DNA of 14,509 bases from a virus (taxonomy: Duplodnaviria; Heunggongvirae; Uroviricota; Caudoviricetes), in IMG/VR virus record IMGVR_UViG_2534681702_000004, positions 1 to 14,509 of that record; one strand, 5' to 3'. The translations under genes and the position numbers were made by a program. The first letter of the stretch is position 1, and each line of letters starts with the position of its first letter. Shown piece after piece: positions 1,230 through 14,509 of this stretch. The notes below the pieces were generated by a model. The model was not told the origin of the DNA, searched no databases, and saw nothing but the letters and a program-made list of their open reading frames with translations.

Positions 1230-1577
1230 GGGCAAATCCAGCAGCAATAATAAGACGGCGTTTCAACAGCAAACCCTCAGGTGTTTCAAATAGCTGTTCT
1301 TTTTACGGAAATACTTATGAACTGGCTGGAATAAAGTGCAAGAAAATGTGACTACTATCTCATTTTTATCTGACATGATCTGTTGTCACTCGCTGCCAAA
1401 TTGTCGCGCTAAAGCTGATTAGCACGGTGATATTTGATACTCTGGCAGACAGCAGAAATAACGGATTTAACCTAATGATGAATGACGGTAAGCAACAATC
1501 TACCTTTTTGTTTCACGATTACGCGCAACACCACTGAGAACCGCCATGAACAAGGGCTTCATGATTTGTGATTTTAG

Positions 1578-2029: not shown

Positions 2030-4531
2030 CTATCTTTGGTATAACGATTCTTCAAGCTTTCTAATTCTTTCGAAAAGACCTCTCATTATAAATCTATCAA
2101 GCTCCTGATCTCTAAACTGCCAAAGATCACCAGCCGCTCTAATCAACTTCATCTCTCCATTCTTAACTAAGTTTCCAAATTCATCAATTTCAGTAACATA
2201 TTCAAATTCATCATCCCAAGCATCATAACCAATAAATCCGTATTTTTTCCAATCAAGATTATTCTCCTCAAGTATTGCAATAACTTTCTGAACAGTCGTT
2301 CCAGCATGCAGTCTTTTAGATTCATCATCAATCCAAGACCAAAAACCTAGAACTTCTGCAATCTTCATTGCGGCATTTATTTCATCAGCGGTCATACCTC
2401 TAACTGCTGTCTTGAGTCTTGCATCAGAACTTGATTGCGTACCTCCGGCAAAATATCCAACATTATATCTGTTGCTCGCGCGCCCCAAATTTTGGGTTGC
2501 ATCACCAGATGGATGCTGAGTTCCATCGGCTTTAAAAACATAACGATCACTTAAATCTGCAGAAGGAGAGCTTTTTAACGAAATGGTAATATCACCAATT
2601 GATGAAGGTGAAATATCACAACCAGAAAGAGTTGTTGCATTCCTCAGCATGAGATTTCTCTGCGGATGTGCATTAACAGGAATCACCTCTCCTTCCGTAT
2701 CTATAATTACCCCGCCACCGTTATCTATATAGTTTGCAGCAACATTTCCTGACACATCTCCGCTACCAGTCATAACTATCATAGAATCTGTGCAGTTAAC
2801 ACCATACCTTCTGTTGTTTTTCGAACTTGCATTATTAGCTGCTACTGTTGCGTTGTAAACAGAATAGATACCATCTATTACATTATCGCTAGATGTTCCA
2901 CCAGTGAAAGCTATGTTTCCACCATATGACGCTGATACTCCATTTCTGGCATTTAGATATGATCTACCGTTTTCGAAATTAACTTTTGATAACGCCCTGG
3001 CCTCAATACCATTTGTTGAGTTACCACACGCAACACCATTTGGCGCGCTTAACTCACTGTTATTAAATGACCAGAACCCATTCAACCCATTTCCTGAGCA
3101 TACAGATCCGTTGGCCTGAATCGCACCACCGATATCAGATATAATCCCATCTTCACCATTACCAGAGCAAACCATGAATTTTCCTCTGATATGAGCTCCT
3201 TCCGCGTAAATACCGCGCTTTCTATTAGATGATGAAGCTATAAAATTACATACAACACCTGCTCGACCAGAAGCAACAAATCCCTGCTCCCCCCACCCTG
3301 ATATAACAATATCAGGACCAATTGCTAAATTACCAGACATGTCAAATACTTTATTTGATGGATCTGGTTCATCAATTGTTATATCAGGCGTGGCAATAGT
3401 GAACCCATGCGCTCCAATTGTGCCTATAGATTCTGCTACCGAGTAATCACCAACAATGGCTACACCATCAATTGTATTAATACAATCACCACCTGACACG
3501 GCAAAACCATCACAACCAGTATATTTGAGAACCGACTTAATTATAGATACCGATCCTCCAGTTAATGTCGATTCAGGGAAGTTATCAAGATGGCAAGTAT
3601 TATTTACTGTAACATTTGCTCCAGAAACTGACAGTACTTTCCATCCTCCACAGTGCATGTGATATGCACCGGTTCCTGAAACGTCATGTCTAATTATGAT
3701 ATAATCACCAACAGAAACATTTGAAGCATCAGAAAGCGATATCGTTACAGAATAATTTTTCTTCGAACCAGCAACTGATACAAGTGATGTTATTGATGTT
3801 TCATATTTGACACCCTTAATTGTCAAATTATGGGCGCCTATACAACTAACAATGGTCTTTTCTGTAAAATATGAATAGCCAGGGGGAATATTAACTGTAA
3901 GCCGCCCCCTTAACTCACATCTTGAAAACAACTTAAATAATCCAGAAACATCTTTTATTGACGGGTTTGCAACAAACTCACCAGGAGGAATAATTATAGT
4001 TCCTACGTTTGAACTTAAGGCATTTATAATTGCATTTGTTATGCTGCTGTCATTTACAATGTAATCAGCTATGCTGATTGACTCAATCATTTTATCATGA
4101 ACAGTTCTTCTGTCTGACGACATGCCTGGTTGCTTTACGTTAACAAGGTTATCTCCAAGTCCATCCAATGGGCTTAAAAGTTGTGCACGTAGTTGATCTG
4201 GATCATACTTCAGCACATTAGGAAAATAGAACTGCTGCGCACCATACGCATCATAAACAGCCATAGAATGGCCTTGCACGGTAACGAATTTGGCAATCTG
4301 TCCGTTATATACTGGATACCCTGCGGCATTGATGACGATTGGCTGTGCAACAGGAACGTGAGAGCCGTCTTCGTTCTCCACATAGACCTGAATCTGGTTT
4401 TCAGGATTTACCGGGTCAGTGTCAATTTTACCGATATAAATTTTGCCATTGGCTACGGCTTTAAAAGAACGCGCCATAGTGAAGAGTTGCGAAGGCATGC
4501 TTACTACAACATTGGCTGTAATGTCTGTCAT
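2030..4531 (-). CDS. Mosaic tailspike: P22 gp9-type N-terminal head-binding domain (about aa 1-111), divergent beta-helix receptor-binding/depolymerase body, and C-terminal intramolecular-chaperone-like domain (about 2033-2428)
   Basis: The N-terminus [11 protein letters not shown]...[22 protein letters not shown]...ENEDGSH...[12 protein letters not shown]...VLKYDPDQ matches the P22 tailspike head-binding domain from recall; similarity stops after YDPDQ. The middle is Gly/Asn/Ser-rich with repeats typical of a parallel beta-helix. The C-terminus has SSSDARLK, resembling the serine autocleavage motif of endosialidase/K5-lyase-type chaperone domains. GGAG RBS 8 nt upstream of the ATG. Confidence 0.85.
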
Positions 4532-4631: not shown

Positions 4632-5534
4632 TCAGTAGTTATGTACTGAAGGAGGCAATTCTTTATTCTTAAGTCTCATCCATGCGGAAAGATTCGTTGG
4701 TCCGTCTGGCTCATTAATATCAACATCTCGTGTGTGGTTTATTAAAACGTCTCTCGCCATTCCGATAACATACGAGAATTCATGACCGTAGTCGTAGCAT
4801 CTGCCGGAATAGTTCGATTGAATTTGTTTTAGCGCCAGATACAGTTCGCGGAATAATGCCTGTGAGCGGTTGGCATAATCCCATAACCATACAAGGCTGT
4901 TTGCTTCTTTTGCAGAAAGCTCGTTGGTTTTCTTCTCTTGTTTGCCGATAAATTCACCTTCAAGCACTACCCTGTGGATGTACTCTACGGCTTGCGGTAT
5001 CTGAGATGCATCAAGCTCTTCAATACTTTCCACATTGAAACGCTGATGAATCATTGCATAAGCTTCTGGGTACATTAGATGCTTTTTGCTGACTAGCATA
5101 TTTACAGCATCACGAAGCGGAGTCCTGTCATCAACAGATGTTTTCTTACGTGCATTTTCTGCCTTTCCCTTTGTCCAGTAGTCATGCAGTACAGTAAAGC
5201 ATTCTTCCTGGTACTGAATCAGTTTATCACGGATGTCAGCACGAACTTTCTCAGGGTTGATGCTGAACAGCCATCCATTTAACTTCTTCAAAGGAAGGCA
5301 GAGTAGCTTACGAAGCTTCCCATCAGCGGCAACCATGTTCATATGAACACAGTTGAATTTGCTAATCTGCTTCATGAGTTTTGTTTGCTGCGTTGACCAG
5401 CTCATTCCAAGGTTTTCAACGATTGGCTTCATCGCAACATATGCAACTCCGGCAGCCATGGCGGTGATAATTTGCTGACCGTTGAATGGTACATAAGAGG
5501 TGTTCACTGCTTCTAAAATTGCTATACTATTCAT
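4632..5534 (-). CDS. ant: Antirepressor Ant (P22 immI), 300 aa
   Basis: [43 protein letters not shown]... matches P22 Ant from recall. ATG at 5534 has a GGAGAAAA RBS. The longer ORF in the track starts at a TTG at 5600 and is rejected. Confidence 0.85.
5501..5528 (+). promoter_or_regulatory. Candidate Psar promoter with extended -10 (TGcTATACT at 5520-5528) inside the 5' end of ant, reading antisense
   Basis: The -10 hexamer TATACT has an upstream TG. The weak -35-like TGTTCA sits at the right spacing. This places the start about 5536, just past the ant start codon. Confidence 0.5.
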
Positions 5535-5535
5535 G

Positions 5536-5604
5536 TTGGTTTTTCTCCACGGATTTACTGACAACCGAAGCCCTGACTGTTCCCGCAGTTGGGGCTTCAA
5601 CTTT
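5536..5604 (+). ncRNA. sar: sar-like antisense RNA (about 69 nt) covering the arc-ant intercistronic region and ant RBS
   Basis: P22 encodes a 68-69 nt antisense RNA in the arc-ant spacer. Here the spacer is 68 bp. A hairpin at 5567-5598 is followed by CUUU. Exact ends are inferred. Confidence 0.55.
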
Positions 5605-5764
5605 ACGCGCCAATGCGCCCTTCCTTCTTAAAGCTTTCCATTACTCTCTGATAAATCTCAGAGTTAACAGACCGACCATTCTCTTCCGCCACCTTGCGGA
5701 CCAAATCCAATACTTCTTTAGGCCACCGCAAATTGAACTGCGGCATCTTGCTCATTCCTTTCAT
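5603..5764 (-). CDS. arc: Arc repressor (ribbon-helix-helix), 53 aa
   Basis: [53 protein letters not shown] matches P22 Arc from recall with one substitution (R16K). The track ORF extends upstream into the operator and is trimmed to the ATG at 5764. Confidence 0.92.
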
Positions 5765-5780
5765 ATTCACCTCACAATAT

Positions 5781-5797
5781 AGGTCCACCGTGGACCT
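5781..5797. promoter_or_regulatory. Mnt operator (O_mnt), 17 bp palindrome
   Basis: AGGTCCACCGTGGACCT; its reverse complement AGGTCCACGGTGGACCT is the canonical P22 Mnt operator as recalled. Confidence 0.85.
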
Positions 5798-5806
5798 ATT
5801 GAGAAT

Positions 5807-5827
5807 ATAGTAGAGTGCTTCTATCAT
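5807..5827. promoter_or_regulatory. Arc operator (O_arc), 21 bp, overlapping Pant
   Basis: The reverse complement of 5807-5827 is ATGATAGAAGCACTCTACTAT, the canonical P22 Arc operator as recalled. Confidence 0.85.
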
Positions 5828-5854
5828 GTCAATACACTAACTTGGAGTGATGGC

Positions 5855-6106
5855 ATGGCTAGAGATGATCCGCACTTTAACTTCCGTATGCCTATGGAAG
5901 TAAGGGAGAAATTAAAATTCAGGGCGGAGGCGAATGGGAGATCAATGAACTCCGAGTTGTTACAAATCGTCCAAGATGCTCTATCAAAACCATCGCCTGT
6001 GACTGGATATCGCGACGATGCAGAACGACTCGCTGATGAGCAGTCAGAGCTTGTTAAGAAGATGGTATTTGATACGCTGAAGGATTTGTACAAAAAACCC
6101 ACCTGA
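5855..6106 (+). CDS. mnt: Mnt repressor (maintenance of lysogeny; represses Pant), 83 aa
   Basis: MARDDPHFNFRMPMEVREKLKFRAEANGRSMNSELLQIVQDALSKPSPVTGYRDDAERLADEQSELVKKMVFDTLKDLYKKPT matches P22 Mnt from recall. GGAG RBS 7 nt upstream. Confidence 0.92.
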   Translation: MARDDPHFNFRMPMEVREKLKFRAEANGRSMNSELLQIVQDALSKPSPVTGYRDDAERLADEQSELVKKMVFDTLKDLYKKPT

Positions 6107-6124
6107 AGGTGGGTCCTATTTATT
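6092..6124. terminator. Bidirectional rho-independent terminator between convergent mnt and the lipoprotein gene
   Basis: A6 - CCCACC TGAA GGTGGG - TCCTATTTATT. The mnt stop codon TGA lies in the loop. The minus strand has a U6 tract directly after the stem. Confidence 0.75.
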
Positions 6125-6542
6125 AGTCTTGCTTTGTTGATGGTATAAGAGATGCGTTTGCCTCTTTTGGCTTCAAGGTATACATCCCACCATTAAAAGG
6201 ATCTACAGCAAGCCAACCAATTAACCCACCAAACACAAGGTTTCCACCAATATACCAGCCATTAGCATTGGCTTTGATTGGCAGGGTAACTGGTTCGTAC
6301 CCATCCTTTTCCATAGTGATCTGGTAGCTCTTTTTGCCAAAATAACTACCATCTGACTTGGCAAGAGTTACTCCTTGCGGGGTCTTACCTTGCGCAACAA
6401 TCACGCCTGATTCGTCTTTTACCTTAAAGCTCGCACCGGAAGGATTGCTGTTCACTTGCACAAGCTGCGTTTCGTCACCAACAATAGTTGCGCACCCAGA
6501 TAACAATATAGCGCCAGCAACGACGCCAATAATCCTCTTCAT
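6123..6542 (-). CDS. Hypothetical prophage lipoprotein (lipobox LSGC), cargo gene in the sieA position
   Basis: MKRIIGVVAGAILLSGC is a typical signal peptidase II signal. The ORF is followed by a terminator. An alternative start (MEIDMKR...) lies 12 nt upstream at 6554. Function is unknown. Confidence 0.7.
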   Translation of the reverse strand: MKRIIGVVAGAILLSGCATIVGDETQLVQVNSNPSGASFKVKDESGVIVAQGKTPQGVTLAKSDGSYFGKKSYQITMEKDGYEPVTLPIKANANGWYIGGNLVFGGLIGWLAVDPFNGGMYTLKPKEANASLIPSTKQD

Positions 6543-6659
6543 ATCAATTTCCATATTTAAAAAACCGGAAACATCCTAATGACAAACCATTCAAATGTGA
6601 AGTAGGCAAAAGATGTTTACTTTTTTCATGGTATCCTGCTCAAAACTAAGGAGGTTGGC

Positions 6660-7049
6660 GTGAAGCAATTTCTTACTGCTATGTTCTTATTCATATCTTT
6701 TGGGGCTACAGCAGAGTGCTGGGTCGTTGGAGATATGCGCGGAATAAGCTATTCAGAACGAAATAATTTCCATCCGGAAGAAGATGGTTTTAGTGGAACA
6801 TTCATCATTAAGACAAACGGTGAAGATGCCAGCATCACATATTCTGGGACAGATGCGGGCGGCATGGCTTACAAAGCATTGTCTAAAAACTCCATCATAG
6901 GAATCGGCGCGAATGGCGAAACTCAACGCGTTATCGACTCATGGGTAATACATCCTACTGGAACAGTTTTAATGTCAAAAACCATTTCCGGTTATGGAAA
7001 TATGGATTCAACCAAAGCTTTTGTTGGAAAAGTAAAAAGAAAATGTTAG
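6660..7049 (+). CDS. Hypothetical secreted protein (Sec signal peptide with ATA/E cleavage site), cargo gene
   Basis: GTG start with a strong TAAGGAGG RBS at 6647-6654. The N-terminus MKQFLTAMFLFISFGATA is hydrophobic. The mature protein has an N-proximal Cys and a C-terminal Cys. Confidence 0.62.
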   Translation: MKQFLTAMFLFISFGATAECWVVGDMRGISYSERNNFHPEEDGFSGTFIIKTNGEDASITYSGTDAGGMAYKALSKNSIIGIGANGETQRVIDSWVIHPTGTVLMSKTISGYGNMDSTKAFVGKVKRKC

Positions 7050-7073: not shown

Positions 7074-8912
7074 TTACTGCTGTGTTGCCTCAGTAGCAAA
7101 CAGCGGTCTGATGGCATTCGCAGCGTTATTTATCGCTCTTTCATAGGCTGGTGTTCCTGCTTTGGTGTTTGCCAAACGAAGAAGCATATTCCTTGCTGCT
7201 TTGGACTCATACAAGCGCATCATTGCACCAAAACCAGCCTCAAGCCCCATTGATACGCCAAGGGTCGCAGTTGCGCCAATCGTCCTTATCCTGTTGGCTT
7301 GCGATTGCCCCGTCTGAGTTACTACATTTGCGGTGTCTGACCTTGCTGTTTGCTGTAGAACTTCATGAAGAGCATCAAGCTCTTTCATGTGCTTTCCAGA
7401 AAAAATAGTGTTGTAAATTTCACCGCCTGACTGAGATTTCAGCTTATTAACTTCAGTGATGAACTTGGCTGGAGAGTCCCCGGTCTTTTCCGCTATTTTG
7501 CTGACGTAAGCTGCACGCATAGCATCTTTCCCCTTATCATCCAGTGCGCTCCAGATTCGTTTCACGTCAGATGGTTTTCTGCTTAATACAACGGTATTTA
7601 TAAGTTCAGGACTGGCTTCACTGCTTGCCTTGTTGAGCTTGTTGGCAATGTTTTTATTAAGCACCTTATTATAAACGTTTGCATAATCGGAATTTGCTTT
7701 AAGGTATTTTGCTGCGTCTGATGCACCGAGGTTTTTAGCAACTGCGTTACGAAGGTCTTTTGACATTGCATTCTCTACCATATTGGTAGCTGCTTTTGCC
7801 TGGTTGGGGAAGACCATAGCATCTCCCTGAACATTAGATCTAAATGCTGTTCTGTGCTGACGCAAGAGATCAAACGTAACATCCAAATCAGTTGCAGGGT
7901 TTGCTAATTCTTCACGTAGGTTACGCAAGGATGTAAGCAGGCTTTGATTGGCAGACGTCCCAAGCCGTTCCTGTCTTGCGATCGCTGTATTCAGAGCATT
8001 CATGGTATTTGTGGTATCAACTGCGGCATTACCCATTTTATTGGTGACGTCATTGATAACAGCGCCAGCGGCATCCTTCCGCCCCCTTAACGTGGTGGTC
8101 AGAGATTTCACCACATCATCAGGGTTGTACTCACCAAAACGGTCAAAATAATTGCTTACCAGCTTACTCCGCGTTGCATATTGCTCTGCTCGCTTTGAGC
8201 CCGTCCCGAGCAAAGCCCCCTCGGCATCCTGAGTAAGGCCGCGAGTGAAAGCATTTTTCGGCGGGATAACATCAGATGTCATTGGTGTCACGCCCATCGA
8301 TTCTGATGTGGCAATTTTCTTCGCCACTTCTGGCGCAATATCACCTTTTATAGCCGTTATTCCACGCCCTATTCCCTTTGCTGCTGCGGAAAGAACACCC
8401 TGAGCGGCAAGGTTAACTCCGGCATTTTTAGCTGCATTTTGTGCGAAATCGCCTTTCTGATTTGCGGCCTCTGCCAGCGATCCAATAGCCATGCTTCCTG
8501 CCGTTCCAACTCCTGGAACTAAATACCCACCAATTGTTTCACCGGCTTGTGCGTATGGGTCTGTCGGTTTGTCTACTGGACGATAAACATCATCCAAAAC
8601 TTTTGGCCCACCAAGCCCCTGACTGATTGCATTAATCAGACTTGCGCCACCCTGCAATACGTCAAATGGTATGTTTACCAGACCACGACCAGCCTGTTCT
8701 GCAATTTGCCCTGCACTTTGACCACCAGTGAGCCAATCGCCAGCTTGTTGCATCAATGATGGTTCTTCACGTACTGGTGCATTATTGGCCTGATTAACTG
8801 TTTGTTGCTGAACAACCTGACCAGCAAAATAATCATCAATGGCGGCTCCAATATCTTCCGTGCTCGTACCATCAGGGAAGGTAAATGTCTTACCGTTTGC
8901 AGTTACTTTCAT
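7074..8912 (-). CDS. DNA-transfer (ejection) protein, P22 gp16-like
   Basis: About 612 aa, starting [32 protein letters not shown], which resembles P22 gp16 from recall. Ala/Gly/Gln-rich composition. The start overlaps the upstream gene stop (TGATG). An alternative ATG lies at 8915. Position matches gene 16 in the P22 order 20-16-sieA-mnt-arc-ant-9. Confidence 0.72.
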
Positions 8913-9740
8913 CATTCCACCGTAAATTGAATGCCTGATTTTGAGGTATATGATCCAACCTGATTCCGTGGTTCTCCTGAAGGTGTCGAATCTTGTGCTG
9001 GCGCTGCGTCAGTATTCAATGACATATACCGCTTAACGGCACTCCCCAATGATTCACCTTTTTTAACATCCAACCCCAATATCTGACCGCCATTACGCGA
9101 TTGTCCAGGATTGCCATTCGCGCTCATCCACTCAGCTTTAAACTCATTAAACTGCGCGTTTCGTCGCTCAAGGTTTGCCATTGCATCAAGCCATCTTGCG
9201 ACCGTCTCAGGGTTATCCATGTCAGTTGGCGCACCCTGCCGAACGATCTCAACGTCTTTATCCGTTGCTGGGCCGGGAGGTAGGAATTTAAGAACCTGAC
9301 TGTTAACAAGGGCATTTTGGCGGATGCGCAAATCACGCAATGTCGTATCGCTTCCGGTAAGTTTTGCGAACATGTTCTGTGCGTTACCGAACAAACCTGT
9401 CGTTGGTTTTTCTGCTCTGAACTGTTGAGCAAGCGCACTCATAGAATTGGCTGAGTTTGATGATGCTGTGGCATTGTTTACAGCCGTCTCGATGCCTTTT
9501 TCCATGTTTACTGACAGCTTAGGTGCTTCACTAATCAACTGCTGAGCCTTTTCCTGCGCTTGCTGCATCTTAAACCCGAACTCTTGCTGATCCAGAGCCA
9601 AGCGTTGTGCTGCGATATTGTGCCCAGTCATTGCTGACTGATAGGAAAGGTTTTGCCCTCTCGCCTGAAGTGCTTCACCAGCCTGATTGCTGCGGATTGT
9701 CTCTGCCAGCCTGCCTCGGTCAATTTCACGACCAGCCATC
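8912..9740 (-). pseudogene. Ejection protein (gp20-like), 3' portion, separated from its 5' portion by IS629
   Basis: The ORF continues in frame with the 11051-11283 fragment once the IS and one ATC copy are removed (352 aa total). The stop overlaps the gp16-like start. Confidence 0.6.
9738..9740. repeat. Target-site duplication ATC (left copy) of the IS629 insertion
   Basis: ATC immediately flanks both IS termini (9738-9740 and 11051-11053). Confidence 0.75.
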
Positions 9741-9782
9741 TGAACCGCCCCGGGTTTCCTGGAGAGTATTTTATCTGTGAAC

Positions 9783-10673
9783 TCAGGCTGCCAGATCATT
9801 ATTTCCGATGGAAGCATAATAAGCTTTTTCTGCTTCTGCCGGAGGAATATGGCCCAGCCTTTCCAGCAATCGTCGATTGTTATACCAGTCCACCCACGTT
9901 AGTGTGGCCAGTTCCACTTCTGTCCGGTTTTTCCAGCTCTTACGGTGTATTACCTCCGCTTTGTAAAGACCATTGATGCTCTCAGCCATCGCGTTGTCAT
10001 ACGAGTCGCCAGTACTCCCTGTTGATGCCAGTAATCCGGCTTCCTTAAGCCGCTGCGTGTAGGCCAGCGATACATACTGAGAACCTTTATCACTGTGATG
10101 GATTGTGCCGGACGGCCGACGGGCCCACAACGCCTGCTCCAGTGCATCCAGCACGAATGTTGTTTCCATGGATGATGAGACCTGCCATCCCACGATGTAT
10201 CCGGCGAACACATCAATGATGAACGCCACATAAACGAAGCCCTGCCATGTGCTTACCCAGGTAAAATCAGCCACCCACAACTGGTCTGGACGTTCTGCCA
10301 CGAACTGACGGTTTACGCGGTCGCATGCGGCAACGGCTTTCCGGCTGACGGTAGTGCGGACCTTTTTCCCCCGGAGAACACCGGCAAGTCCCATAACTGC
10401 CATGAGACGTGCCACAGTGCATCTGGCCACTCTGATACCTTCCCGTAACAACTGACGCCAGACTTTACGCACACCGTATACCTGGTGATTTTCATCGTAT
10501 ACGCGCTGTATCTCTTTCTTCAGCCAGTCATCGTGCTGCGCACGGGCACTGCGTTTATCCGGATGATGTCGCTGTTGCTGACAATGGTAATACGTTGACG
10601 GGGCAATATGCAGTTCGCTACATACCGGTCCGACCCCGTACTGCTCACGCAGCTTATCCAGCAGTGGCATCAT
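9783..10673 (-). CDS. IS629 transposase OrfB (DDE integrase domain)
   Basis: 296 aa ...[50 protein letters not shown]...[10 protein letters not shown]...[15 protein letters not shown]... matches IS629 OrfB from recall. Confidence 0.9.
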
Positions 10674-10996
10674 TTTTTCCAGAGGCGGTCGAACTCCGCC
10701 TTCGCAAAATAAGCGGAAGCCTGGCGAAGGATATCGTTACTGCGGCGCAGTTCACGATTTTCACGTTCCAGCTCTTTCAGACGCTGACGTTCAGCGCTGG
10801 TGAGCCCACCATCACCGCCCCCGGTATCCCGCTCATGCTGGCGAACCCAGACACGCAGAGTCTCCGGCGTACAGCCAATCTTTGGGGCAATGGAACAAAT
10901 TGCCGCCCACTGTGAGTCATATTCATCCTGACTTTCCAGAACCATACGAATCGCCCGCTGACGGACTTCGGGGGAAAAACGAGTATTTTTAGTCAT
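10670..10996 (-). CDS. IS629 transposase OrfA (HTH / leucine zipper)
   Basis: 108 aa [61 protein letters not shown]... matches IS629 OrfA from recall. An A6 run sits at the orfA/orfB overlap. Confidence 0.9.
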
Positions 10997-11050
10997 CCTG
11001 TTTACCTCTTTCTCAGGGAGTTTAGTCTCCAGGATTTCCGGGGCGGTTCA

Positions 11051-11053
11051 ATC
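11051..11053. repeat. Target-site duplication ATC (right copy) of the IS629 insertion
   Basis: See left copy. Confidence 0.75.
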
Positions 11054-11283
11054 TTATCCTGAACAGCAAACGCCTTTTCTGGTCCAAGCGCACCGAGAGA
11101 CATAGTAGTCAGCATGTGTGATAGCTGCTCTGGATTCTGGATACCTGTCTGAATCATCCAGTCAGCATTAGCACCAACGCGATTTAACCTGTCCTTGTTG
11201 TCAGTAATGAATTTACTGTAGGCTTCCGGTCCCTGAGAAAGAGCGACGTTAGCCCTCATGGCTAAATCGCCCATAACCGACAT
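11051..11283 (-). pseudogene. Ejection protein (gp20-like), 5' portion (77 codons), interrupted by IS629
   Basis: ATG at 11283 with an in-frame stop 36 nt upstream and no convincing RBS. The reading frame is continuous with 8912-9737 after IS removal. Confidence 0.55.
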
Positions 11284-11442
11284 CCTGCACAGGTTGAAGC
11301 CGTCAGGATGGCTATAGAGTTACGAAATGAGATGAATAAGGCATTAATGGAGATAGAGAAACCATTCACTGACAAACATTAAGAGTGGAAATAAAGAAAT
11401 CACACAGCCTCACACTCGATGAGGCCTGTACATATCTGATAG

Positions 11443-11467
11443 AGCCGCTATATGGCGGTTTCTTTTT
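11443..11467 (+). terminator. Intrinsic-terminator-like hairpin plus T-tract immediately upstream of the alpA-like RBS
   Basis: AGCCGC-TATATG-GCGGTT followed by TCTTTTT. A second hairpin GCCTCA-CACTCGA-TGAGGC lies at 11407-11425. Confidence 0.5.
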
Positions 11468-11482
11468 GCCTGGAGAATTAAG

Positions 11483-13784
<2,302 letters not shown>

Positions 13785-13789
13785 GTAAC
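13785..13789. repeat. Target-site duplication GTAAC (right copy) of the IS100 insertion
   Basis: See left copy. Confidence 0.8.
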
Positions 13790-14509
13790 AAGCGTTCTTC
13801 TGAAATCATGTGTTCGCCAGTAACCTATATCCATCCCTCCCCTTATTCTATTTACGAATCGGTTGGCTGCAGCGATGCTGATCGGTTTGTTTATGTCTTC
13901 TCCAGGGAAAAGAACATCATTGTACGTTGTCATGGCCTTTTCGAGGAAAGGCTTAATTTGTTCGAAGATTGGACGGCGGATAACATTACCCATCTTGCTA
14001 TGCTCTTTCGGTACGGTCCATACGTTGTCCAGCAGGTCAAACTCTGTCTTTGTTGCCAGCCTAAGCTCTGAGAGCCTCGCCCCCCACAGCATAAGCATCT
14101 GATGAAGTAGCTTATTTGACGTAGACGCACGGCTTCTTTCAATAGCAAGCCAAATCTTAGCCAGTTCGTGATACGACAGTACCCGATCCCCTACCTCAGC
14201 GCGGGAGCCGAAGTCCCTTGGTTGGATGCTCATAATTGCGCAACTATCTATCAACTGACGCCGCATGCACCAACTTATTGCTGATCTTAGTTGACTTAGC
14301 ACCTGCCTTGCTCGGCGTGGATTATCTCTTTCTTCTTCGGTAAGCAGGTCAACCCATTGCTTAACCGTGATAGAAGATGCCGGACGATTAGGAAAGGCGT
14401 CATGCATGCGCTTCATAACCGTTGATCGGTAAAGTGCCTGGGTCTTTTCTCTGAGAGTTGTAGAGACGTAGTTGTCGAACCAGTAGTCGAGACACTGGGC
14501 GACCGTCAT
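13785..14509 (-). pseudogene. P4-type tyrosine integrase, 5' portion (core-binding and part of catalytic domain through HDFRRT), interrupted by IS100; may extend beyond the window
   Basis: ...GYWRTHDFRRTLVT at the junction. The window ends on an ATG (MTVAQ...), but P4-type integrases usually have an extra N-terminal arm-binding domain, so the true start may lie outside. Confidence 0.78.

Follow-up and report, generated by a model that had tools for sequence, protein, structure and literature searches.

An internal deletion of about 29 kb in a P22/Sf101-like prophage at sbcB of Escherichia coli has very probably joined a beheaded gene 20 to the prophage's own xis/int cassette. The junction lies in a stretch of viral DNA of 14,509 nucleotides, which is called the window below. 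The first-pass annotation of this window had flagged the interval 11284-11482 as an abrupt change from the phage late region to an AlpA/integrase module, and had offered four readings of it: a deletion or recombination scar, a leader peptide or attenuator for the alpA-like gene, a small RNA, and a remnant of an att site. The abrupt discontinuity is real, and the scar is the correct one of the four readings, as seen from a sharp switch from N7-type to Sf101-type sequence at the junction. The junction is more than chance, yet it is a routine prophage deletion scar, whose components are all known or annotated in relatives.

An important process was the base-by-base comparison with the two parental sequences, which places the breakpoint at 11274-11275 (/11276), about 9 bp to the left of the flagged interval and not at 11284 as had been assumed. 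The window equals Escherichia phage N7 through position 11275 and equals phage Sf101 from position 11274, with a 2-bp overlap (TA). In the search of phage genomes, the matches form two groups meeting at this one point: 11054-11275 matches the 'DNA transfer protein gp20' of N7 with 99.5% identity and the match stops at the junction, and 11274-11831 matches Sf101 with 98.6% identity, covering the stretch upstream of xis, the AlpA-family gene and the 3' end of int. No phage record in that search covers both sides. Alignment with intact phages, for which the first-pass annotation had regarded colinearity as an argument against a scar, gave matches that split exactly at the junction and no colinearity across it. 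As expected for a deletion scar, the switch takes place within 2 bp, both flanking frames are truncated, and each side is colinear with distant parts of the relatives. A microhomology of 2 bp is weak evidence about the mechanism.

We also checked in which genomes the junction is present. It was found in 8 of the 5426 complete E. coli genomes (FORC_031, for example) and in one metagenome contig, which carries the same form as FORC_031, without IS1203; the exact junction sequence gave no match among the GTDB species representatives. The features of the window are listed below with their basis, from left to right.

1511-1523, minus strand: 13-bp att core (CGTAATCGTGAAA), the attR-side boundary; exact match, sole copy in the window.
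8912-9740, minus strand: 3' part of the remnant of gene 20 (DNA ejection/injectosome translocase), separated from the 5' part by IS1203; Pfam Inj_translocase profile positions 186-217, colinear with FORC_031 and with N7 gp20.
9741-11050, minus strand: IS1203/IS629-type element of the IS3 family, 1310 bp, in gene 20; comparison with the IS-free FORC_031.
11054-11275, minus strand: what survives of gene 20 nearest to its 5' end, from the codon equivalent to N7 gp20 residue 123 onwards; N7 identity up to the junction.
11274-11275, no strand: deletion junction with a 2-bp microhomology (TA) common to both parental sequences; comparison with N7 and Sf101.
11276-11283, minus strand: ATG that is in frame by chance, with 5 further nt, all stemming from the side upstream of xis, which adds M-S-V and makes the truncated gene 20 resemble a complete ORF; junction comparison and translation.
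11276-11382, plus strand: remnant (codons about 37-71) of a 71-codon ORF (phrog_15342), whose tail from an internal Met is the 24-codon ORF; full ORF of Sf101 and profile match.
11396-11430, plus strand: fossil of the first ~12 codons of a P22/SfV-type xis (…SHSLTLDEAC), start codon lost, containing hairpin 1 (11407-11425); DNA comparison with P22/SfV xis and tblastn.
11442-11467, plus strand: predicted intrinsic terminator upstream of xis, hairpin 2 with T-tract; terminator scan, fold and conservation.
11483-11674, plus strand: xis, AlpA/HTH_17-type excisionase of 63 aa, with a GGAG RBS at 11472-11475; phrog_66 and similarity to phi24B Xis.
11655-11831, minus strand: 3' part of int, an sbcB/2851-type tyrosine integrase, convergent with xis with a 20-nt overlap; 98.6% identical to Sf101 int.
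11832-13784, minus strand: IS100 (IS21 family, istA/istB) in int, with a 5-bp target duplication; break of the Sf101 alignment at 11831/13785 with a 5-bp overlap, and PGAP names IstA/IstB.
13785-14509, minus strand: middle part of int; the 5' end of the gene, attL and sbcB are outside the window; identity to Sf101 int 98.8%, FORC_031 context continuing into sbcB.

We explain the gene 20 side of the junction on the basis of FORC_031, which is free of IS1203. Residues 4-352 of the remnant read from this genome align to residues 123-471 of N7 gp20 with 99.4% identity, and the remnant enters the Pfam Inj_translocase profile at position 112 and the PHROG profile at position 122; the PGAP label in FORC_031 is 'phage DNA ejection protein, incomplete, missing N-terminus'. 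Gene 20 of N7 comprises 471 codons and directly follows gene 7. Judging from this alignment, the gp20-like ORF is a 5'-truncated gene 20 with its first 122 codons deleted, and the earlier suspicion that the upstream portion of the late operon had been lost was right. The observation that this ORF has neither a good RBS nor an upstream partner was also sound, and both are missing because the first 122 codons have been deleted and the ATG comes from the other side of the junction. The start at 11283 must be given up: the ATG at 11283-11281 and the next five bases derive from the Sf101-like side, and the ATG thus belongs to xis-side sequence.

Two insertion sequences had been overlooked, IS1203 splitting gene 20 (9741-11050) and IS100 splitting int (11832-13784). 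The former, named 'IS3-like element IS1203' by PGAP in the matching genomes, is flanked by a 3-bp target duplication (ATC, at 9738-9740 and 11051-11053). It is absent from all 8 complete E. coli genomes with the junction and from the metagenome contig; since the junction thus occurs without it, IS1203 was inserted after the deletion, and its insertion is the most recent event at the locus. A deletion mediated by an IS was considered and rejected on the same observation, together with the fact that no IS abuts the junction. The IS100 insertion in int is common to the window, FORC_031 and relatives. Each of the two insertions was an event of its own.

The first-pass annotation had described the AlpA/integrase module as unrelated to the late region. 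This view does not hold, basing on the att cores: the cassette is native to Sf101/2851-type phages, and the late genes and the int-xis cassette are enclosed by the same two cores. The 13-bp core at 1511-1523 has been reported as the attP/attL core of Sf101 and 2851, two phages with sbcB as their integration site (PMC4159516). The second core lies outside the window, about 500 bp past its right end, and was seen only in FORC_031 (99.9% identical over the shared sequence), where it is found 33 nt into sbcB, at the 5' end of this gene, in the colinear locus (positions 23957-23969 of locus L001). That locus sits between dacD/IS2 and sbcB, and the prophage remnant in it is about 12.2 kb long, including IS100. 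The window itself starts inside IS2, as the transposase ORFs in 1-1229 are colinear with the IS2 beside dacD in FORC_031. The P22-like late genes (20, 16, mnt/arc/ant, tailspike) run in canonical order towards attR, according to the ORF map, the PGAP names in FORC_031, Pfam and the N7 match. Repeated att cores, a 2851-type integrase beside attL and P22-like late genes, which together characterize an sbcB-integrating Sf101/2851-type prophage, have therefore all been found. The idea of an att-site remnant in the spacer is not supported: the search with up to 2 mismatches gave no core match in the spacer or elsewhere in the window outside 1511-1523, and the integration target is sbcB, not a tRNA gene.

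In FDN-24, LSC52, Sf101, HK140 and mEp234, which keep more of their genomes, lambdoid early-left genes stand before the same xis-int pair next to sbcB or attP; they include N, ral, kil, recT/erf, ea22 and lar. From the Sf101 map, an intact prophage of this type would be expected in the order attL, int, xis, early-left, immunity, replication, lysis, head genes, 14, 7, 20, 16, mnt/arc/ant, tailspike, attR. A single illegitimate recombination at the 2-bp TA microhomology would have removed the DNA that extends from a point 208 bp upstream of xis through codon 122 of gene 20, and the truncated gene 20 would thereby have been fused tail to head with the leader of the prophage's own xis. The size of the deletion was obtained from the Sf101 map (about 18.8 + 10.6 kb), and both this size and the premise of a single prophage rest on mosaic relatives. 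The spacer of about 200 bp would then be the native 3' end of the early-left operon, which contains, in order, the last 35 codons of the 71-codon ORF, the 5' fossil of a P22-type xis left over from an older cassette exchange, a conserved intrinsic terminator and the RBS of xis.

The late genes and the cassette could instead have been brought together by a deletion or recombination between two different tandem prophages at sbcB, a P22-like one giving the late genes and a second lambdoid one giving xis-int, which we regard as improbable. Many unrelated lambdoid phages, among them Stx phages, HK140 and mEp234, do have the sbcB-type cassette, variability at sbcB is high (PMC4159516), and a single intact parent, combining an N7-type gene 20 with an Sf101-type xis leader, was not retrieved. 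However, no phage records other than those of Sf101 and IME10 contain the 208-bp stretch before xis with the phrog_15342 ORF in it; of these two, the taxonomy was consulted for Sf101, which is a Lederbergvirus. The attR-side arm is Sf101-like too, 1494-1975 having 89% identity with the Sf101 attP arm, so that both ends and the late genes fit one Sf101-like genome, and the FORC_031 locus holds just two att cores.

Among the closest known systems is Sf101 of Shigella flexneri, a Lederbergvirus integrating at sbcB (PMC4159516). Identity with the window amounts to 98.6% for the int-xis cassette together with the 208 bp that precede xis; the two have one att core in common, resemble each other in the attP arm and follow a common P22/Sf6-like order of late genes. 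The Sf101 paper pointed out a large non-coding gap between orf19 (AlpA) and orf20 (PMC4159516), and it is in this gap that the breakpoint of the window falls. Sf101 is intact with 38.7 kb, whereas the window lacks about 29 kb, from the early-left genes through gene 7 plus 122 codons of gene 20. In addition, the gene 20 allele of the window is N7-like, not Sf101-like, ant/mnt/arc and a different tailspike are present in place of oacB, and IS1203 and IS100 have been added.

As a side observation on the late region, two small genes were noticed between gene 16 and mnt, at 6123-6554 on the minus strand and 6660-7049 on the plus strand, one of them with a lipoprotein-like signal (…LLSGC…). They look like moron or superinfection-exclusion candidates; the position between gene 16 and mnt is the one in which P22 carries sieA.

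We next turn to the spacer. The 24-codon plus-strand ORF at 11308-11382 exists as described, and translation and profile searches indicate where it comes from. The 24-mer matches positions 48-71 of the 71-position phrog_15342 profile (E = 7e-13), and the full 71-aa ORF is intact in Sf101 (positions 2894-3109 of locus L003), roughly its first 36 codons having been removed by the deletion. Among phage records, tblastn found the 71-codon ORF only in Sf101 and IME10, unannotated in both, and we call it a putative gene. Pfam searches with the 71-aa ORF and with a 33-aa ORF of the spacer gave nothing meaningful. Since the 24-codon ORF is the truncated tail of the 71-codon ORF and is missing from most phages with the identical terminator-RBS-xis sequence, the proposal of a leader peptide or attenuator for the alpA-like gene was rejected. 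A conserved leader ORF with an RBS was not found, and no alternative antiterminator pairing stood out in the folds.

Both hairpins proposed for the spacer are present. In hairpin 1, GCCTCA (11407-11412) pairs with TGAGGC (11420-11425), with a folding energy of -10.5 kcal/mol (z = -3.1). The DNA around it can be aligned beside the xis genes of SfV and P22 (ATGGAATCACACAGCCTCACACTTGATGAGGCCTGT): the P22 gene starts with ATG GAA TCA CAC AGC CTC ACA CTT GAT GAG GCC TGT (MESHSLTLDEAC), and the former ATG is AAG in the window. The fossil peptide matches the annotated xis genes of SfV, SfI, P22, ST104 and others in tblastn, and in P22 and SfV too the palindrome of hairpin 1 sits within the xis coding sequence. 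We examined whether hairpin 1 could be a minus-strand terminator for int and discarded this candidate, because its T-tail is poor (GTGTGATTTC) and the xis fossil explains the sequence better. In phages 2851, mEp234, WGPS6, Stx2_16002 and others, the homology to the window starts exactly at the fossil, which points to an old exchange by which the sbcB-type cassette took the place of a P22-type xis-int. In most phages, the fossil also forms the left mosaic limit of this int-xis cassette.

The 12-codon fossil precedes two different RDF genes, the AlpA-type xis of the window (11396-11430) and torI of K-12 (positions 2180-2215 of locus L013), which suggests that the xis 5' end has served repeatedly as a joint for recombination. 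In the yfdT-ypdJ-torI region of the E. coli K-12 prophage CPS-53/KplE1, a relic of the 5' end of a P22/SfV-type xis (…EPYSLTLDEAC…) is likewise located directly before a functional RDF gene; this relic is annotated as ypdJ and forms the same hairpin-capable sequence. The K-12 case differs in that the downstream RDF gene is torI and not an AlpA-type xis, in that there is no equivalent terminator sequence, and in that the prophage is located at argW.

Hairpin 2 had been placed at 11443-11467 as a terminator-like hairpin with a T-tract. Its stem actually occupies 11442-11461, with 8 pairs including 4 G-C, and is followed by TTTCTTTTT to 11467; the fold has -10.5 kcal/mol (z = -2.0), and the terminator scan detects it, having found 3 sites against 0.8 expected. 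The stem, the T-tract, the RBS and the xis start have been kept in 10 phage or prophage loci whose upstream sequences are unrelated. HK140 has other loop bases and a C-G pair in place of the T·G pair, and the equivalent position is annotated there as 'rho-independent terminator'. An analogous GC-rich hairpin with a T-run (CCGCCTTCGGGCGGTTTATTAT) is found between the preceding gene and xis of phi24B, on the minus strand (about 1605-1628 of locus L016), at the position that the terminator has in the window, although the Xis proteins have just 47% identity. Basing on this conservation, hairpin 2 is predicted to be a conserved intrinsic terminator in front of xis.

A small RNA, the remaining reading, is disfavoured by both searches made for it. 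Rfam covariance models gave no match on either strand of 11000-11950 at E <= 1, and the sigma-70 promoter scan of 11000-11900 gave no site, so that neither a small RNA nor xis has an obvious promoter. The fold of the whole spacer is no more stable than that of shuffled sequences (z = -0.7), with only the two local hairpins standing out.

The leader of 75 nt (fossil hairpin, terminator and a frame ending in ATGA) is invariant, and there is a slim chance that it is a genuine excisionase control element. If true, translation from an upstream gene or uORF would suppress the terminator and couple into xis, and the fossil would have been co-opted and would not be inert. The chance is very slim that the spacer is a working regulatory leader of xis, in which attenuation or translational coupling through a short upstream ORF would control the terminator. 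Two ORFs could play this part, the 24-codon one and a 33-codon one with a GTG start at 11385-11486; the frame of the latter runs without a stop through both hairpins and closes with ATGA, its stop overlapping the ATG of xis. Terminator and hairpin 1 are conserved, and where the cassette is linked to yfdT, the 33-codon frame is provided with an ATG and a GAGG box and shares bases with the stop of yfdT (TAATG). However, the 24-codon ORF is a truncation product without a spaced RBS, and the start of the 33-codon frame is not conserved: right before hairpin 1, phages 2851, mEp234, WGPS6 and HK140 differ and have unrelated sequence or the stop codon of the upstream gene, in differing frames. According to a rough estimate, 25 stop-free codons occur by chance about 30% of the time, and the 33-codon frame is accounted for as the P22-xis fossil, again with no alternative antiterminator pairing standing out. 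The yfdT-linked cassette is that of E. coli RIVM_C037794 (positions 2500-2605 of locus L006), where a 30-codon uORF with GAGG and ATG overlaps the preceding stop as TAATG and closes with ATGA at the start of xis. This uORF, which would be translated across the terminator, is probably a leftover, yet it is the sole hint of coupling.

The alpA-like gene with an RBS after hairpin 2 is present as the first-pass annotation had it. The small HTH protein matches phrog_66, 'excisionase and transcriptional regulator' (E = 2e-8), and has 47% identity with the Xis of phi24B (E = 4e-19), the two integrases being 57% identical; the phi24B Xis has been validated experimentally and promotes Int-dependent excision (PMC3064807). 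The protein is identical to the Sf101 ORF, and the DNA region with gp19 is 98.6% identical to Sf101. In Pfam, the scores are below the gathering thresholds, with 17.8 bits for Phage_AlpA (cut-off 21) and 16.8 bits for HTH_17 (cut-off 27). By its similarity to a validated Xis, we assign the AlpA-like protein as a prophage excisionase.

The convergent layout of int and xis is also found in Sf101, HK140, mEp234 and phi24B. In phi24B (vB_EcoP_24B; Fogg et al. 2011, PMC3064807), as in the window, an inverted int converges with a small HTH excisionase gene, their 3' ends overlap, and a hairpin with a T-run is located just upstream of xis. In the model for that phage, transcription of xis comes from pL and is controlled by CI, and that of int comes from a separate promoter which CI does not control (PMC3064807). 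The two systems differ in attachment specificity and sequence, and phi24B is a functional Stx phage; as pL has been deleted and int disrupted in the window, the phi24B model describes its ancestor only. In intact relatives, the terminator would most likely limit xis expression to N-antiterminated pL transcripts, so that Xis would be made only after induction, and int on the opposite strand would be read from its own promoter, as in phi24B. In the remnant, because pL is gone, no promoter-like site is present before xis and int is split by IS100, the cassette would be inert and unable to excise, leaving the prophage locked in place.

It is barely conceivable that the AlpA/integrase module is an independent P4-like or PICI-like satellite or island in or next to the late region, with the spacer as its end or att remnant: intact Sf101 Int does have the P4-type arm-binding domain (Arm-DNA-bind_3) together with Phage_integrase in Pfam, the phi24B annotation mentions a 'P4 integrase conserved domain' and several records label the small protein AlpA family, but the identical cassette is integral to the complete phages Sf101, 2851, mEp234, HK544 and HK140, the att core is in sbcB and not in a tRNA gene, has no match in the spacer and encloses the late genes as well, the sequence from xis leftward to the breakpoint is Sf101 early-left DNA, and the ORF map of the window contains no satellite genes.

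The internal deletion would be the first step of a stepwise grounding, followed by the insertion of IS100 in int and then of IS1203 in gene 20. The remnant resembles other 'grounded' or cryptic prophages, in which the lytic and regulatory modules have been lost, the recombination module has been inactivated by an IS, and tail/ejection and moron genes have been kept; nothing in it is distinctive, only the particular breakpoints being lineage-specific. In FDN-24, a prophage of the same type at sbcB (positions 5042-6226 of locus L002), the gene of a 'DNA transfer protein', truncated at its 5' end, lies directly against that of the N antiterminator, and this independent deletion indicates that decay by deletion has occurred more than once at the sbcB locus.

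Apart from getting the annotation right, the finding has little significance. For the ORF at 11002-11283, the appropriate entry is a gene 20 pseudogene that lacks its 5' part and is interrupted by an IS; the AlpA-like gene should be entered as the excisionase of the prophage, and the spacer as the native leader of xis, including the terminator. The few E. coli strains in which the exact junction occurs could be traced by it as a lineage. The locus also gives a tidy example of how a prophage is grounded step by step, and it shows a mosaic joint at which an older P22-type xis would have been replaced, leaving the 12-codon fossil that is also found in K-12 as ypdJ.
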